Source: a phage. Taken from it: a DNA stretch of 64,000 nucleotides. Where the stretch lies: sequence record OZ413489.1, one strand, 5' to 3'. The notes below the pieces were generated by a model, which was not told the origin of the DNA, made no database searches, and was given only the letters and a program-made list of their open reading frames with translations. The first letter of the stretch is position 1. Each line of letters begins with the position of its first letter. The translations under genes and the position numbers were made by a program. This document shows, piece after piece, positions 2,467 through 64,000 of the stretch.

Positions 2467-4896
2467 ATGAGCATGTGGTCGTTCGACTTTGAGTCATCCG
2501 GTTTGCTGGAAGACCCAGATCTTTATTATCACTGCGGCCTGTTTAAAGAGCTGAATAAGAACCGTTTTATGCTGTTCCTTCCTCTAAATGACCGCACACA
2601 CTACTCCGAGGAGGATATAGAAAAGGCTAAGAACTTCATTCTGGCAAAGAAAACTCTTTATAAAGATTTTGAAGTTCGCATAGCAGATTTTTCAGAGTTG
2701 GAAGGTTGGCTTACAGGAAATTCTGACTGGTCACCAACAGCTTTGAACTGCCATAACTGCTACAGTTATGACTTTATGCTGATGGAAAGATTATCTGGTA
2801 TTCATTTTGATATGTTCCGTGATCCTAAATGTATGGGGACTATCAACGATCACCAGGTTAACCTGTTTGATACGTTGGCGATGAGCCGAATCTTGTGGCC
2901 TGATCGCCCTTTACCAAAAGGTTGTCCGGACTCTGTATTCAACCCGGTTACTAAGAAAATGCAGCCTGTTGGTCCTCACGGCCTTATGGCATGGGGCTAC
3001 GCCCTTGGTAACCAGAAAGTTCAAATTGATGACTGGCGCGATCTTCCGTTGTGGAAGTATGTGGATCGTGTATTCGAGGACGTTATCATCCAGGAGCTGC
3101 TCTGGAAAGAGCTGGTAGCGGAATCAAAAGGTGTATTCTACGGCAAATCTGACATGCAGAACTTTATGTACGATCCGGCCAAAGAGAAGCCGAAAGGGTT
3201 CAAGAAGATCACCTGGAAGAACGCATTACGTCGAGGCATGCTGCAGCACTTCCTGATGGAGCTGCAGGCCCGTCAGGGTGTATACTTCGACATAGATGGA
3301 GCTATTGCTTTACGTGACCGTTGCGATGCGTGGATGAAAGAAATCGCTGATCGTGTTGAACCACAACTACCTTTAAAAGAGCTGTCAATGTCTCAGCGGC
3401 CCAAGTTCCCTGAAAAGCCGTTTAACCAAGACGGGACAATCTCTAATAATGGTTGGAAATGGTTAAAAGATAAGCTTGGCTATCCTGTAGACATGAGTGC
3501 TTTAGAGTTCAAAGCCCTGCCTAAGCGAGCATTTACCTCTACAGGAGATGTCAGCAAGATGGGGATAAAATGGTGTGAAGAGATGGGCTGCAAAGACCCC
3601 GATAAGATGGCTGATTTCTTGAGAGGCTATATTAAGGGCACCTCCACACCACAACCCTTACCTAAAGAGCTGATGGATCAGGCAATAAGTGATCTGCAGC
3701 AGAAGCGAATGCCTGACTGCAAGATACCTATGAAAATCAGCAATCAGGACGACATCAAGCGATACCTAATCAGTGCTGGTTGGCTCCCAACAATGTGGAG
3801 AACTAAAGATGTAACTAAAGACAGCAAGAAGAAAGCTTTACCTGATGCAGATGTTGATGCACGAGTATATGCATATATGGACGAGCTTTTGGAGTCAGAG
3901 TATTGTGACCTAATTATCAACTTCTGGAACAAAACTGATGCTAAGTTCCAGACAACCGTGCACAAGTTCCGAAGCTTTCCTAACTCCGAAAGGATTAAAA
4001 AGGAAGTATTCGGGAAAATACGTAGAAAAGCCAGGGCACTTATTACTTCTCCGCAACTGAAAGATACGTTTGGACACCTATGCCCAAATCTTGAAAAATT
4101 GAACGGAGAGATGGCTAAAGATATCGTCTTGTGGTTATCATTGCGAAACCGCAGATCGGTCCTTGATCCAATCAAGGAGGATAAGGTTGATACTGGTCTT
4201 CTTAATCACCCACGTTTGAAGATTGACCATAAGCTTCCTGCTAAAAGCTCTGGATTAACAAACACTTCCAGACAGAAACACAGTATTTGTGCAAACATGC
4301 CTAAACCATCTCCTAAAGTAGTTATGGGTAAAGAGATGCGTAGTCTGTGGGGTGTTCCTCCAGGATACTTTGAGATCGGTATTGACGGGTCCAACTTAGA
4401 GCAGCTCATCGGGGCTTGGGGTGCCTTTGAGTTCGACAACGGCTTGTATTATGATGTTGTAAGTAACGGAGACGCACACCAAAACAATGCTGAGGCATAT
4501 ACAAAAGTGGCAGGCAGAGAGGTGTCCCGTAACGACGGTAAACCTATCACGTATGGGGTTATGTACGGGGCACAAAAAGATAAAGTTGCAGATATGCTGG
4601 ACATCTCCCCAGAGTTGGGACAAAGGGTAATCGATGCACTCTGGGATGCCAACCCAGGTCTTAAGGGGCGCAAAGAGGATCTGGAGAAATTCTGGGAAGC
4701 AACAGGTAAGAAGTTTATCTACTCTTTTGATGGTCATGCTATCTGGACCCGATCTAAACACTCTTTACTTAATGCATACCAACAAAATGGCGGTGCATCG
4801 TTGTGTGACTTAGTTGGAATACTCATGCACCACCAGATGGTGAAGCGTGGGTGGTACGATGAAGGTGTTCGTCGTATTATTTATTACCATAAATAA
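2467..4896 (+). CDS. DNA polymerase, family A (T7 / Pol I type)
   Basis: 809 aa; N-terminal exo motif FDFESSG; motif A-like IGIDGSNLEQL; motif B-like KPITYGVMYGAQ. Confidence 0.85.
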   Translation: MSMWSFDFESSGLLEDPDLYYHCGLFKELNKNRFMLFLPLNDRTHYSEEDIEKAKNFILAKKTLYKDFEVRIADFSELEGWLTGNSDWSPTALNCHNCYSYDFMLMERLSGIHFDMFRDPKCMGTINDHQVNLFDTLAMSRILWPDRPLPKGCPDSVFNPVTKKMQPVGPHGLMAWGYALGNQKVQIDDWRDLPLWKYVDRVFEDVIIQELLWKELVAESKGVFYGKSDMQNFMYDPAKEKPKGFKKITWKNALRRGMLQHFLMELQARQGVYFDIDGAIALRDRCDAWMKEIADRVEPQLPLKELSMSQRPKFPEKPFNQDGTISNNGWKWLKDKLGYPVDMSALEFKALPKRAFTSTGDVSKMGIKWCEEMGCKDPDKMADFLRGYIKGTSTPQPLPKELMDQAISDLQQKRMPDCKIPMKISNQDDIKRYLISAGWLPTMWRTKDVTKDSKKKALPDADVDARVYAYMDELLESEYCDLIINFWNKTDAKFQTTVHKFRSFPNSERIKKEVFGKIRRKARALITSPQLKDTFGHLCPNLEKLNGEMAKDIVLWLSLRNRRSVLDPIKEDKVDTGLLNHPRLKIDHKLPAKSSGLTNTSRQKHSICANMPKPSPKVVMGKEMRSLWGVPPGYFEIGIDGSNLEQLIGAWGAFEFDNGLYYDVVSNGDAHQNNAEAYTKVAGREVSRNDGKPITYGVMYGAQKDKVADMLDISPELGQRVIDALWDANPGLKGRKEDLEKFWEATGKKFIYSFDGHAIWTRSKHSLLNAYQQNGGASLCDLVGILMHHQMVKRGWYDEGVRRIIYYHK

Positions 4897-4920
4897 CATT
4901 GTGGCTTCATAGAGTAATCT

Positions 4921-5079
4921 ATGTCGAATAACCTCTTTAACTGCGGGAAGCCTAAACCTTATGGCAAGGTAATCCGCAACGAAGCGCTCAAAAGAGCGAA
5001 CGCTCAGAGGCCATTCCGAAAGGAAGTAGACCAGCAAGTGCGGTCGAAATGGGAGGATTCCTGTGGTTGCTTATCATAG
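4921..5079 (+). CDS. small hypothetical protein (52 aa)
   Basis: ATG ORF below the track size cutoff in the gap after the polymerase gene; weak RBS. Confidence 0.3.
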   Translation: MSNNLFNCGKPKPYGKVIRNEALKRANAQRPFRKEVDQQVRSKWEDSCGCLS

Positions 5080-5163
5080 GAATATGAGATGGTCCGATCC
5101 TACGTGAAAACGTATGGCTATGCACGTAATGGTGCGGGGTAGCTTAACGACCTACCTGAACTA

Positions 5164-22584: not shown

Positions 22585-22848
22585 ATGAAACGTCTTGATC
22601 AGCTCAAATTAGTTCAATATATGGCTTATCGTGTTCTTGAAGTCCAGAAAGGTAGCAAAAAAGAGGTTTGCGAGAAAGCTTATAAGATCTTCACTCGCAA
22701 AAAAGATGACTGGATGCTACGCCAGACTAAAAAGGCTGACATCTTGGGGTACCTGGAAGAAGAGATCCGCCTTGAAGAGCAAGAAGAGATCCGCCGTAGT
22801 GAGGCAGATTATCAGGCAGCTTGGGAAAACTGGATGAGCAACAAATAA
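22585..22848 (+). CDS. hypothetical protein
   Basis: 87 aa ORF with AAGAGG RBS; last gene of the rightward block. Confidence 0.55.
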   Translation: MKRLDQLKLVQYMAYRVLEVQKGSKKEVCEKAYKIFTRKKDDWMLRQTKKADILGYLEEEIRLEEQEEIRRSEADYQAAWENWMSNK

Positions 22849-22867: not shown

Positions 22868-22893
22868 AGGGGCTTAAAGCCCCTTTCTTTTTG
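22868..22893 (+). terminator. rho-independent terminator ending the rightward block
   Basis: AGGGGC-TTAAA-GCCCCT followed by TTCTTTTTG. Confidence 0.65.
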
Positions 22894-23772
22894 TCTCCTC
22901 TTTTCCTACCACAAATGGCCCCGCCTGGCAAATGGAATAATCAACAAGCCAGCAATTAACCCCACTGTACAAACATACATATAAAATAACTATTGCATAA
23001 TTTTTCATTGTGTGGTAGCAGTGCCATTTTTACACGTTTTTCCTTCCAAAATTGCACGTAATGCAGCATTTGCACAAAATTTAACCTGATGCATATCTTC
23101 AATAGCTTGTCAACAACTAAAAATCTTTATAAGTCATACACTTACATAACTACAAAAACGTTTTCTACGTGAAAAATCGAGTATAACTATAGCCGCCAGA
23201 TCTCAGAATTTACGTACGCTCGCCATTCTATAGCCTGCTAAGCATTTATTCCAACCATAGAATAACGGAATAGTCAATACCTGCATAAAATAATTATTCG
23301 TGTAAACTGCATAACATAAATCGGCCCAGGTGTCAACATTTTTCGTAAACAGTCTGGAATTGTCACGTTAGGTTACCATAAGCAGAGAAATCTTTAGTCG
23401 TCTAATGTTTACTGTACATTACTATACTGACTGGAATCATTAGATGACTAAGAGAAAGATAAGAAATAATTAATAATGTAATTATTTTACCTGTAACAAT
23501 AAGGCAACTATGCAAACGAATGGCATGGCGCGACGGAGTCGCGACATAATATAAAAGCAGTAACCATCACCCCCGTGATAGTTTGTCTGCAAACTATTAA
23601 TCAGATCATAGTTGCCTTGTATTTAGTTAATCATGACATGACAAGCAAGGCAACTATAGATCTGCTAATAGTTGCCCTGCTTTTATATTATGTCATGCTA
23701 ATTATAATCAGTGCGATTATTGTCATGTATAATTATTGTCATGCAAACGAATGGCATGGCTGATTATCGGTG

Positions 23773-23859
23773 TGTAAACAGTCAATCATGTAAATGGTTA
23801 GCATGTGAACAATCAGGAATGTAAACAATCCAGTGTGTAAACTAATAGGTGTGTAAAAG
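23773..23859. repeat. iteron array: six TGTRAAMW octamers at about 16 bp spacing
   Basis: Copies start near 23773, 23789, 23804, 23820, 23836, 23852. Confidence 0.65.
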
Positions 23860-24001
23860 TGTCATGTTGTGTCAGTTAGGTCACATTATGTCAGACAAGT
23901 TTTTCTCCTCTTTGTCAAGTGCTGCATGAAAAATTTACAAGCTTGTATGGTAGCATTTTTGCGGCCCTGTTTACATTCAGTAATGTATGTATAATCCTTG
24001 T

Positions 24002-24165
24002 TGTGTGGGCGTTTAGACGTCTAGACGGTTGGAAGTCCACAGGTCAATATCTAATCTATCGGCTGCTAACTATATCCCACACATGTGTGGGCGTTTAGAC
24101 GTCTAGACGGTTGGAAGTCCACAGGTCAATATCTAATCTATCGGCTGCTAACTATATCCCACACA
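24002..24165. repeat. perfect tandem duplication of an 82 bp unit with 8 bp terminal inverted repeats
   Basis: Unit TGTGTGGG...CCCACACA at 24002-24083 and 24084-24165; internal palindromes AGACGTCT / GTCTAGAC. Confidence 0.8.
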
Positions 24166-25461
24166 AATAGTAAGAAATATGATTGTTATATGCGTAAACT
24201 GTAACTCATGTTATCAATCCCTGTATGGATCGCCAGTGGTGCGCATAATAGGTATTATGTTAAATTGCCCGTAATGATAACAGTTCTCACAATGATAGGT
24301 ATTCTCATTCATCCACACAAAATAGGTTGCAAATGTTGTGCCACTGTGTGAACGGCCTGGCCTATTAATTTCTCTCACTGCCTCGATATTTGAGAATTGT
24401 TATAAGAATGAGAAGTATTCCCATTCCGTCCGCCTGGCAGCACTCCTGTAGGTCCTGCAAGGACTCTAGCTGAAAGCTAGACCCTTCGGGCCTCCCTGTA
24501 GGTCAGGTCAAAATCGTGGTAGAATTGGGCCTGTTCAGATATTTCTGGCTGACTCTTCAGGTCTGTGTGGGAAAAGCCAACCTCTCCGGCGGGGCAGGGG
24601 GTCATGACGGGAAAATTGCAGGTCAATTAAAAAATTTACGTGGTGTATGAAGCGCTCTTCAGGTAAGGCATGTATTATGGGATGAAACCCTCTTCAGGCA
24701 ATGATATTTGTGGGTGTGATATTTGCTGGAAAGCCAGATATGACGGGACTCCCGGCGGGGATGGGGTAGTACAGACAGGGAAAATATGAGAATGTAGTTG
24801 GGGAAATTGATCAGACAGGTAGAGTATGGAATATGTTACAAGTATGTTAAATATGGAGGTTGAATATCTGTAGGATTTGTGTGTAAAATCAAAGACTTAA
24901 GGGGTGTTGTGGTATTTTCTATAAATAATTCAAGTTTAATAGGCAATATTTGTCTCTATCCGCTTTGTGTGGTAAACAGATTCAGATTAGATTGGTTTAC
25001 AAGTGTATACATAATATACAAATTAAAGATACAAGAAACCCCCCTCCCCCTTCGGCTACCATTCACCTTTTCCTCTGACTGGTACTTAAACACTTATTCA
25101 GACTCTTCAGGTTATCACCCATATATCATATGGCAGTGACTGGTGTCCTCCGGCCCCTCTTTCGTCACCCGTCCGCTTCGCCATGCTAATGCCATAGCCA
25201 ATGGTTCGGTTGTTCACTCTGTTCACTCAGGTGTATCTCCATACCCCTTCAAACCGAAGAGAACAGAAAACCCGAATTACTCGGTAAAAGAAAAGAGAAG
25301 AACTTAATTTTATCAGGATAGGCAAGAATGTCAAGGCATGACTGCTCACTAAACAAGCAAACAGTCATGTGTGGAAGGTAAGTGATTGTGGTGGTGGGAA
25401 ATTTAGTTGAAAGATGTGTTATAGGTGCTCCCAGCACTTTAGCCGGGTAGCTAATTGTGTG

Positions 25462-62464: not shown

Positions 62465-63396
62465 TGCATATAGTTCTCGTTGTGGAAATAGTAATCAAGT
62501 ATCTCACGGCGTTCCTGCTCCAGGAGGCAGTTCCACACATCTTCTGTGTAATTGTTACGAATGAAGTTTACCATGCCGTAAAACTCTTCGTCAACACGTT
62601 TAAAGATATCATCATCCCAAATCCTCCAAGCTTTACCCCTCATTACGGCCTTCCGTGCCAGGTAGTATGGAGACTTGATCTTCAGCTGCAGGTCATAAGG
62701 GTAGTAAGGCTTACGGATCATATACCCTTCGCCCCTTGTTTCTGCGGCTAATTCTTTTGCATAGCTGAACGGGATTTCACGCACAGTGTGAGGACGTTTT
62801 GCACCAAGGTATTTGGCAATCCCATCTAAAGCTGCTTCTGGTAGCATTATTCCAGAATCATTATATCTGCAACCTATCAAATATGCGCCATGGTCTTCTT
62901 GAACAATATGCGGATCTGAAGGGTGACAAATTTCAAACATGAATGTCATGTTTTCATTGCCCATAACCTTCTTGATAAGATCTAAATTACCACATTGCTC
63001 TTGGATGGTTTCCTTTGCAAGGTTACAATATGGAGAATCAAGAGACCCGGTTGTTGAGAACAATAGGTCACCTTTATGAGATGATACCACACCAAGGAAT
63101 CCGTTCTTTTTCTCTACCGCAGTCACAAGCTTATTGTCAGGCAGGTTGGTGGAGTTTTCTCCCAAGTTAAACACTTTTGTGAAGGGCCATGCCACAACAT
63201 TTCCTTCATTACCTACAACAATGCCTCGACACTCCAGTAAACGAGGGGACAAATGCCATAAATTGTTGTAAAATACTTTTCTAGCATATTTATAGATCTT
63301 TAACCCAAGATCCGGGTAATATCTACTGGTTACAAGACCTTTGTCAACTAGGTCGTCTGCATTAAAATACTTCATCATACGTTCCTCATTTGTCAT
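62461..63396 (-). CDS. RNA ligase-like nucleotidyltransferase (putative)
   Basis: 311 aa; candidate motif I EKKNGF plus EGYMIRKP and LKIKSP; from memory only. Confidence 0.45.
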   Translation of the reverse strand: MTNEERMMKYFNADDLVDKGLVTSRYYPDLGLKIYKYARKVFYNNLWHLSPRLLECRGIVVGNEGNVVAWPFTKVFNLGENSTNLPDNKLVTAVEKKNGFLGVVSSHKGDLLFSTTGSLDSPYCNLAKETIQEQCGNLDLIKKVMGNENMTFMFEICHPSDPHIVQEDHGAYLIGCRYNDSGIMLPEAALDGIAKYLGAKRPHTVREIPFSYAKELAAETRGEGYMIRKPYYPYDLQLKIKSPYYLARKAVMRGKAWRIWDDDIFKRVDEEFYGMVNFIRNNYTEDVWNCLLEQERREILDYYFHNENYMQ

Positions 63397-63439
63397 TTTG
63401 TCAGTCTATCCTGCCACACAAATAACCTAGTGTCAACAC

Positions 63440-63468
63440 TTGAAATTAACAAAACAGTTAGGTATACT
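63440..63468 (+). promoter_or_regulatory. sigma70-type promoter (TTGAAA-17-TATACT) in divergent region
   Basis: Between the leftward ligase-like gene and the rightward kinase gene. Confidence 0.5.
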
Positions 63469-63496
63469 ATCGTTGAAATTAAAACGGAGTATTACT

Positions 63497-63907
63497 ATGT
63501 CTAAAATGCTATATATCGTGCGTGGTCTACCAGGGTCTGGCAAATCAACACTGGCAAATGCGCTATCTTTAGAAGGTCTGTATCCACATTTTGAGAACGA
63601 CATGTTCTGGTACGACGATGATGGAAATTACAACTGGGATGCAAGTAAAGTAACACTTGCAGCAAAATGGTGCAAAGATAACGTAGAAGATATGATGCGT
63701 ATGGGATACGACCGTATCGTGGTAAGTAATACGTTTACAAAAGAAAAATATGTGCAAGAATATATTGACATGGCGATCAGTCATGGGTATAGTTATACCG
63801 TGATCGTGGTTGAAAACCGCCATGGTAATAAAAGCATTCATGATGTTCCAGACAGGGTTGTGGATCGTATGGAACGCCAGCTTAAAAACTGCATTAAACT
63901 TAAATGA
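63497..63907 (+). CDS. P-loop kinase, polynucleotide-kinase-like
   Basis: Track ORF 63440 (TTG) trimmed to ATG after GGAG RBS; Walker A GLPGSGKST. Confidence 0.55.
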   Translation: MSKMLYIVRGLPGSGKSTLANALSLEGLYPHFENDMFWYDDDGNYNWDASKVTLAAKWCKDNVEDMMRMGYDRIVVSNTFTKEKYVQEYIDMAISHGYSYTVIVVENRHGNKSIHDVPDRVVDRMERQLKNCIKLK

Positions 63908-63915
63908 GGAATGTA

Positions 63916-64000
63916 TGAAATACTTTGTAACAAGCGACACACACTTTCTCCACCAGCGGGTCATGGAGTTCGATTCATGTCAAAAACACAGATCTCAGTA
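63916..64000 (+). CDS. calcineurin-like metallophosphoesterase (partial, runs off window)
   Basis: N-terminus MKYFVTSDTHFLHQ resembles phosphoesterase motif I. Confidence 0.4.

Follow-up and report, generated by a model that had tools for sequence, protein, structure and literature searches.

What is the function of a regularly spaced set of short direct repeats that lies in a part of a phage genome free of open reading frames? The question is raised by a window of 64,000 nucleotides of phage DNA (sequence record OZ413489.1; the coordinates given here are those of this stretch), in which a first-pass annotation had singled out six octamers at 23773-23859 and had read them as binding sites for an initiator or regulator. 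Judged by its sequence, the window is part of the genome of a Vequintavirus, an rV5-like E. coli myophage, and the region in question is 90-97% identical to its counterparts in more than 100 Vequintavirus records.

The repeats sit within the 2.4-kb ORF-free stretch of the genus, which runs here from about 22,870 to 25,250. It is flanked by a plus-strand gene block, which ends at 22848 and is followed by a terminator at 22868, and by a minus-strand block, such that transcription converges on it, and the cumulative GC-skew maximum of the window coincides with the site of the array. The paper describing rV5 placed the same ORF-free region at 104013-106618 of that genome and remarked only on the change in skew, which it tied to the change in the direction of transcription (PMC3606486). 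GenBank records label parts of the repeats 'repeat_region' and nothing more, we found no description of these repeats in the vequintavirus literature, and a scan of IMG/VR with an invariant 20-mer from this region returned 2 contigs only. Nor do known elements account for the locus: Rfam identified only a group I intron when the whole window was searched at gathering thresholds and no RNA family when the 2.7-kb gap was searched at E <= 1, a search for tRNAs found none, and no promoter-like site overlaps the array, with promoter and terminator counts in general close to shuffle expectation. The eight ORFs flanking the gap, together with an optional 139-aa ORF found in relatives, yielded no Pfam domain above threshold, and the label 'DNA translocase FtsK' carried by an 87-aa neighbour in some records is without Pfam support.

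Several other features of this neighbourhood and of the window were recorded. The best sigma-70-like promoter in the gap, at 25334-25307 on the minus strand (TTGACA, a 16-nt spacer and TAAAAT with an upstream TG; 11 of 12 positions matching), faces the ORF-free region and has a terminator-like hairpin at 25284-25272 within ~25 nt. The G-rich right part of the gap (24555-24700 and 25100) holds four copies of CTCTTCAGG and two each of CCGGCGGGG and ATGACGGGA, and is conserved at 0.9-1.0 in the genus. In many relatives a 264-nt ORF is followed by a further one of 420 nt (139 aa, without a Pfam match), which is bracketed by a duplicated terminator; this ORF is absent from our window, where its site is 22868-22885, and from Alma, FV3 and slur16. 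The group I intron identified by Rfam (RF00028, 64.7 bits) occupies 4881-5116, where the DNA polymerase ORF (2467-4896) has its 3' end. For rV5, introns were described in the large terminase gene (PMC3606486), and the TerL gene of the relative Gotham is likewise split, by an HNH/EndoVII ORF.

The six octamers were found at the positions first reported, and all six fit the core TGTRAA, although only four match the proposed TGTRAAMW exactly. Their spacing was described as a regular 16 bp; four of the five steps are indeed of that length, while one is of 15 bp (16, 15, 16, 16 and 16 bp). The copies, all on the plus strand, begin as follows:

23773: TGTAAACA
23789: TGTAAATG
23804: TGTGAACA
23820: TGTAAACA
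23836: TGTAAACT
23852: TGTAAAAG

Overall frequency, which the first-pass annotation had offered as one measure by which the motif could be refuted, is close to expectation for TGTRAAMW (36 matches in the whole window versus 32.4 expected), and the related pattern YGTRAAYWRT is likewise not enriched overall in the window. Taken literally, this result counts against the motif, yet frequency is the wrong test because what carries the signal is the way the copies cluster and are phased. Shuffled sequence never produced six TGTRAA cores in a chain at steps of 15-17 bp: with 1000 dinucleotide shuffles of the whole window the longest such chain had 3 cores, and with 5000 shuffles of the 2.4-kb gap it had 2. 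Neither the window nor the other ~75 kb of a related complete genome holds a further chain of three or more GTRAA, and the strict form of the motif, hereafter class A, has just 7 matches in 64 kb, 5 of them inside the gap.

The similar octamers that had been noted upstream are also present, at 23301 (TGTAAACT) and 23344 (CGTAAACAGT). Their GTAAAC core is intact in 12 of 15 genomes at the former site and invariant in all 15 at the latter, where it starts at 23345. Three such isolated sites, two of which fall within the direct terminal repeat (DTR) of the genome, combine an invariant core with variable flanks:

23345-23350, plus strand: isolated GTAAAC site, core invariant in 15 genomes, flanks variable
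23969-23974, minus strand: isolated GTAAAC site within the DTR, core invariant
24194-24199, plus strand: isolated GTAAAC site within the DTR (CGTAAACWGT), core invariant

GTAAAC sites outside the array are enriched in the gap (7 versus 1.7 expected, P = 1.7e-3), and the extra conserved ones are scattered over ~1.7 kb, both inside and outside the DTR.

The class A array proved to be one element in an ordered series of repeats that ends at the DTR:

23510-23529, plus strand: invariant 20-mer ATGCAAACGAATGGCATGGC, first copy, at the left edge of a conserved palindrome block
23523-23700, no strand assigned: long imperfect palindrome with hairpin or cruciform potential (DNA fold -60.8 kcal/mol, z = -9.1)
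23701-23743, plus strand: class C, three direct repeats of ATTATWRTCAKG starting at 23701, 23716 and 23732 (15/16-bp period)
23741-23760, plus strand: invariant 20-mer ATGCAAACGAATGGCATGGC, second copy, the fixed left anchor of the variable arrays
23771-23859, plus strand: class A, six direct repeats with the core RYGTRAAYART (15/16-bp period)
23860-23893, plus strand: class B, four (R)TGTCA units starting at 23860, 23870, 23879 (GGTCA) and 23889 (9-10-bp period)
23894-24434, no strand assigned: DTR, 459 bp in relatives and 541 bp here

Comparison of 21 related genomes, which represent 19 distinct versions of the array, shows what is retained in this series and what is not. In all 21, the interval between the second copy of the 20-mer and the DTR boundary (106-219 nt) is occupied by direct repeats, and both class A and class B are present. 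Class A ranges from 1 to 8 or more units (1-8 strict copies), with nom, EmilHeitz and FFH2 being natural variants that have one or two only. In our window its units share a single orientation, pointing toward the terminal repeat, and across the 19 versions class A units are spaced at 15 bp (25 steps) or 16 bp (27 steps), which is ~1.5 helical turns. The 11-bp cores are kept (1.8-1.9 bits, versus 0.05-0.7 bits for the spacers), including a T at core position +8 that did not serve as an alignment anchor and is shared by 56 of the 57 distinct units. Spacers and copy number, by contrast, vary freely, and the spacers of neighbouring units all differ. Class B has the consensus ATTRTGTCA in relatives, in several copies with TGTCA mostly 9-11 bp apart, and its last unit is flush with the DTR boundary (TGTCA, then GACAAG) in 19 of 19 distinct versions. 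Class C, whose motif is related to that of class B, varies from about 1 to 6 copies (alignment columns 224-352). Over the window as a whole, ATTRTGTCA with at most one mismatch is under-represented, at 23 occurrences versus 42.4 expected, and each of 100 shuffles gave at least 23.

The gap is otherwise highly conserved, its identity to relatives being 0.9-1.0 except in four places: the arrays (0.49-0.77), a private duplication inside the DTR, the first ~70 nt past the other DTR boundary and 24588-24627 (0.58). The arrays are thus the least conserved and most length-variable part of the gap. The palindrome block to their left is the reverse, with ~187 alignment columns (1-187) invariant or nearly so in 17 genomes that otherwise differ by 5-15%; it is too invariant in this alignment for covariation to be informative. 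The two copies of the 20-mer form a perfect direct repeat 231 bp apart and are likewise invariant in the 17 genomes. The outer arms of the palindrome carry ATTATGTCA and CGACATAAT, the same 9-mer that abuts the DTR boundary, with ATTATGTCA at 23687-23695 on the plus strand and its partner, with one mismatch, at 23542-23550 on the minus strand. The palindrome is a candidate non-coding RNA, bidirectional terminator or cis-acting DNA element. In some relatives small hairpins, of 33 nt and ~45 nt, have been inserted at its loop and 3' edge. The DTR region of KPP-1 (Mydovirus) has no detectable nucleotide similarity to this one, and only weak short repeats were seen at its boundary.

The position of the series is best understood from the physical ends of the genome, which were mapped in relatives ~94% identical to this one. 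Gotham carries an annotated repeat_region at 1-459 and another over its final 459 bases, the two being identical, and the same 459-bp repeat is found at both ends of the HdK5 record. Six records begin at one same nucleotide, corresponding to window position 24434; in six records the match to window 23480-24000 stops at record position 353, and four of the six have this sequence at both record ends. These placements accord with published mapping, in which EdH4 and HdK5 were described as having 'short terminal redundancies of 458 bp', with ends set where most reads stop abruptly (PMC6563267), and in which KPP-1, a Vequintavirinae relative, was assigned a 514-bp DTR and T7-type packaging by PhageTerm (PMC9862379). 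Against this, PhageTerm assigned permuted or headful packaging to vequintaviruses in two other papers (PMC8407724, PMC13211470), and circular permutation was assumed for rV5 (PMC3606486). The greater length of the DTR in our window is due to a private, perfect tandem duplication of 82 bp at 24002-24165, of which each of 14 relatives examined has one copy.

The duplicated unit begins with TGTGTGGG, finishes with CCCACACA and has a moderate RNA fold (z = -3.2); within it, AGACGTCTAGACGG resembles two tandem copies of what we take to be the MetJ box consensus. Beyond the right DTR boundary, a 50-nt insertion at 24447-24496, which is 32 nt long in EmilHeitz and absent in Murica, FV3 and slur16, lies between direct repeats of CTCCTGTAGGTC and holds small GC-rich hairpins. 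No repeat array was found in this right flank (24435-24507).

On the left, the class A array stops 35 bp short of the DTR and lies outside it. The two boundaries, where ATTATGTCA is followed by GACAAGTTTT and CCGTCCGCC by TGGCAGCACTCC, carry related motifs, the left one having been located by motif search and by reference to the two ends of the records for Gotham and HdK5:

23889-23896, plus strand: left end-site motif TGTCA^GAC, with the DTR starting at 23894, within the small palindrome TGTC-A-GACA
24432-24439, minus strand: right end-site motif TGCCA^GGC, the mirror of the left site

Read into the repeat, both boundaries are therefore TGYCA^GRC in inverted orientation, and TGGCAG at the right boundary is invariant in every relative whose right flank could be extracted. 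The match was noticed post hoc, and we estimate its probability by chance at ~0.005. The 64-kb window has 14 copies of the 8-mer TGYCAGRC where 7.5 would be expected, a mild excess. Since 12 of these lie elsewhere than at the ends, the specificity of cutting must come from another source, and the one-sided arrays are the obvious candidate.

These observations bear on the earlier suggestion that the octamers are protein-binding sites. Cores that are kept while spacers and copy number vary, here over 19 versions, are the pattern expected of a binding-site footprint; although this support is indirect, the array motifs are probably sites for a protein. As to what such a protein would do, the location of the array 35 bp from the physical end-repeat makes a signal for cutting and packaging more likely than a replication origin. 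From the arrangement of the sequence, our preferred reading, which we consider as likely as not to be correct, is that the array is part of a one-sided signal for terminase loading or for processing at the concatemer junction, at which the terminal repeat would be cut and duplicated. Read toward the DTR, the order of such a junction would be a ~180-bp palindrome, class C, class A, and a helically phased TGTCA array that ends at the putative cut site. The repeats adjoin that site, class A at 35 bp and class B at 0 bp; both motif classes are conserved in all 21 genomes, and the class A chain is unique in a full genome equivalent.

A possible sequence of events can be outlined. A phage-encoded DNA-binding protein, which may be the small terminase or an accessory factor, would polymerize on the direct repeats and anchor the terminase nuclease on one side of the DTR, much as TerL of lambda is positioned at cosN by TerS bound to cosB. 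Nicks would then be made by the nuclease in the top strand at TGTCA^GAC and, ~459 bp away, in the bottom strand at the mirror motif TGCCA^GGC. With the nick polarity that we infer, both 3'-OH ends would point into the repeat, and strand-displacement synthesis could duplicate it and provide each daughter genome with a full copy, as in the classical T7-type scheme. The mirrored end motif fits this classical scheme of staggered nicks and repeat duplication.

Some observations argue against a packaging role. The arrays lie outside the genome whose end would be formed at the adjacent cut; the 15/16-bp period places neighbouring sites on opposite faces of the helix, which is awkward for simple wrapping of DNA around a protein ring; and the existence of variants with one or two class A units implies that a long class A array is dispensable. 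In addition, no small terminase gene was found, the ORFs upstream of the split TerL being spanins. A more ambitious version can be entertained only tentatively, in which the palindrome, the class C and class A repeats, the TGTCA array and the mirrored sites together would constitute the complete packaging and repeat-duplication signal of a DTR myovirus. Here the recognition protein would be non-canonical, a proposal made because no TerS is recognizable, and the phased arrays would serve as a ruler on one side of the repeat, licensing a pair of staggered nicks ~459 bp apart; we hold this part, too, to be a doubtful possibility. If correct, it would be the first defined pac-equivalent for exact-DTR packagers outside T3/T7, whose mechanism a 2026 review calls 'less understood' (PMC13595956).

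Apart from terminase loading, the array could bind some other phage or host protein that has no part in cutting, and instead silences or insulates the zone of convergent transcription, protects or tethers the end of the injected genome, or governs DNA entry, a role that has been proposed for the stop region of T5, which is rich in repeats. The footprint-like pattern of conservation tells us no more than that something binds, the conserved GTAAAC sites spread over ~1.7 kb would fit a spreading or looping protein, and sites on alternating faces of the helix would suit a protein that bridges duplexes. We nevertheless regard this as somewhat improbable, given that no promoter-like site overlaps the array, that the motif is not found upstream of genes elsewhere (5 of its 7 strict matches being in the gap), and that Pfam reveals no candidate protein among the flanking ORFs. 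It would also leave unexplained why the TGTCA array always stops exactly at the genome end. Among host factors, the TyrR half-site TGTAAA, IHF, the DnaA box and the PurR half-site GCAAACG were compared by eye only and set aside, as their arrangement does not fit.

The origin function put forward in the first-pass annotation is the next to be weighed: a phage initiator would bind the GTRAAY repeats and open nearby DNA, or else the array would serve as an origin near the genome end or for late rolling-circle replication. Direct repeats that share a conserved core do look iteron-like, the strong palindrome lies upstream of the array, an 82% AT patch is present at 23450-23499, and the replication genes are in a transcription unit that runs toward the array region. 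Late in infection by ICP1, whose DNA polymerase and helicase-primase belong to the same T7-like families as those encoded here, sequence coverage peaks at one genome end, which was read as a second, rolling-circle origin (PMC7145576). The local setting is nevertheless that of a terminus, as cumulative GC skew reaches its maximum at the site, convergent transcription units flank it and a physical end lies ~0.5 kb away. Nor do the repeats themselves conform. Classic origin iterons are 17-22 bp long, recur in phase at ~21-22 bp and adjoin a strongly AT-rich unwinding element, usually in or beside the initiator gene, whereas the core here is 11 bp and its 15/16-bp period is out of helical phase; alternating helix faces are thus not the classic layout of such iterons. 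No marked AT-rich tract adjoins the array, with GC contents of 0.28-0.38 in the 50-bp windows on either side; a very AT-rich patch (GC 0.18) is not reached until 270 bp away, on the far side of the palindrome. In the gap-flanking ORFs, Pfam finds no initiator-like domain above threshold. Furthermore, replisomes of the T7 type classically initiate from transcription and not from iterons. For these reasons an origin role for the array is unlikely, although we keep a late origin near the genome end in play as a minor rival.

A better candidate for an origin exists elsewhere in the genus. At 96,720-96,945 of Gotham (MT682716), ~0.9-1.5 kb past window position 64000, ~130 bp of 16-28% GC are followed by four tandem repeats of 21-22 bp, each with the palindrome TGTCCG-N5-CGGACA. 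The element is located in a 660-bp intergenic gap, ~1.5 kb from a divergent junction (window 63,380-63,497) and the GC-skew minimum, and is conserved in 119 Vequintavirus records. From its sequence, this lambda-ori-like element could be a replication origin or an operator array.

That the array is a functionless minisatellite, slippage-prone filler left by breakage, repair and unequal recombination beside the genome end, is very unlikely. No other stretch of the gap varies so much in length or is so poorly conserved (identity 0.49-0.77, 106-219 nt), and in some genomes the array is reduced to one or two class A units, but neutral arrays homogenize whole units with no position-specific constraint, whereas here neighbouring spacers differ while the core with its +8 T is retained, at least one class A unit is kept in every genome, and single GTAAAC sites elsewhere keep an invariant core amid variable flanks.

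The possible role of the array in cutting and packaging is of interest because junction recognition, the double cut and repeat duplication are poorly understood for exact-DTR phages other than T3/T7 (PMC13595956). The genus Vequintavirus is large, being represented by more than 120 sequenced genomes, and is used in therapy and biocontrol, yet its 2.4-kb 'non-coding' region has gone uninterpreted since the rV5 paper (PMC3606486). The present analysis provides a tractable motif map of this region, natural copy-number variants that can serve as ready-made mutants, a candidate consensus for the cut site and a separate candidate origin. In practical terms, it shows annotators the proper start point for vequintavirus genomes, flags 'empty' DNA that engineers should not delete, and offers a candidate packaging signal for the construction of transducing particles.

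How does the array compare with known systems? With the iterons of lambda ori, P1 and plasmids it shares repeats in the same orientation, conserved cores, a non-coding location and a nearby palindrome. The sequence features that define iterons, however, are all found in the genus's other element, with its four 21-22-bp repeats and AT tract, and none in the array, which differs in size and phase, has no AT-rich element adjoining it and is situated at neither a skew minimum nor a divergent site. A second parallel is the pac site of P1, in which clusters of the hexamer TGATCA/G lie at roughly helical spacing beside the point of terminase cleavage and resemble the class B TGTCA units in size and spacing. 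P1, however, is a headful packager with hexamers on both sides of the cut that are regulated by Dam methylation, and the class B units, unlike those of P1, contain no GATC.

Lambda offers a closer likeness. Its cosB consists of three TerS sites beside the nick site, the number of which varies among relatives through unequal crossing-over (PMC4669245). Its short repeats (the gpNu1 sites R3, R2 and R1) are placed on one side of, and within ~120 bp of, the nick site cosN, as the repeats in our window are with respect to the putative cut. In lambda they anchor the nuclease for accurate cutting at a weakly specific site of two-fold symmetry, and the repeats here may do likewise. The differences are equally clear. 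Lambda produces 12-nt cohesive ends at one site, whereas here two putative cuts ~459 bp apart would give the DTR; cosB is on the side packaged first, whereas the arrays here are outside the genome whose end would form at the adjacent cut; in lambda R3 and R2 face in opposite directions across a bend made by IHF, whereas all units here are direct; and cosB is read by TerS, whereas no TerS has been identified here.

The SRL/SRR arrays of T7 are the remaining point of reference. In T7 (NC_001604), ~12 CCTAAAG units with a 13-bp period extend over 174-340, similar units precede the right terminal repeat (TR), and three copies of ACCTAAAG lie inside the TR. To our knowledge, the function of these arrays is not established. 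For concatemers of T7, recognition of pacB by TerS has been described (PMC9860248). Like the array in our window, those of T7 are tandem direct repeats with a short conserved core and variable spacers, and in both phages a few extra copies occur inside the terminal repeat. The T7 array starts 14 bp from the inner boundary of the 160-bp TR; here class B starts at 0 bp and class A at 35 bp, so that short direct repeats begin within ~15 bp of an exact DTR boundary in both. The T7 arrays, on the other hand, are found on both flanks of the repeat and these on one side only, the period is 13 bp in T7 and 15/16 bp here, and the T7 core CCTAAAG has no sequence homology to GTRAAYART or TGTCA. Our phage further differs from T7 in having two or three classes of motif, of which one reaches right up to the putative cut, and in being a myovirus with a 137-kb genome. 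Set against these systems, the array would be a new, non-homologous variant of the kind of element represented by T7 SRL and lambda cosB, a placement to which we assign an evenly balanced probability.
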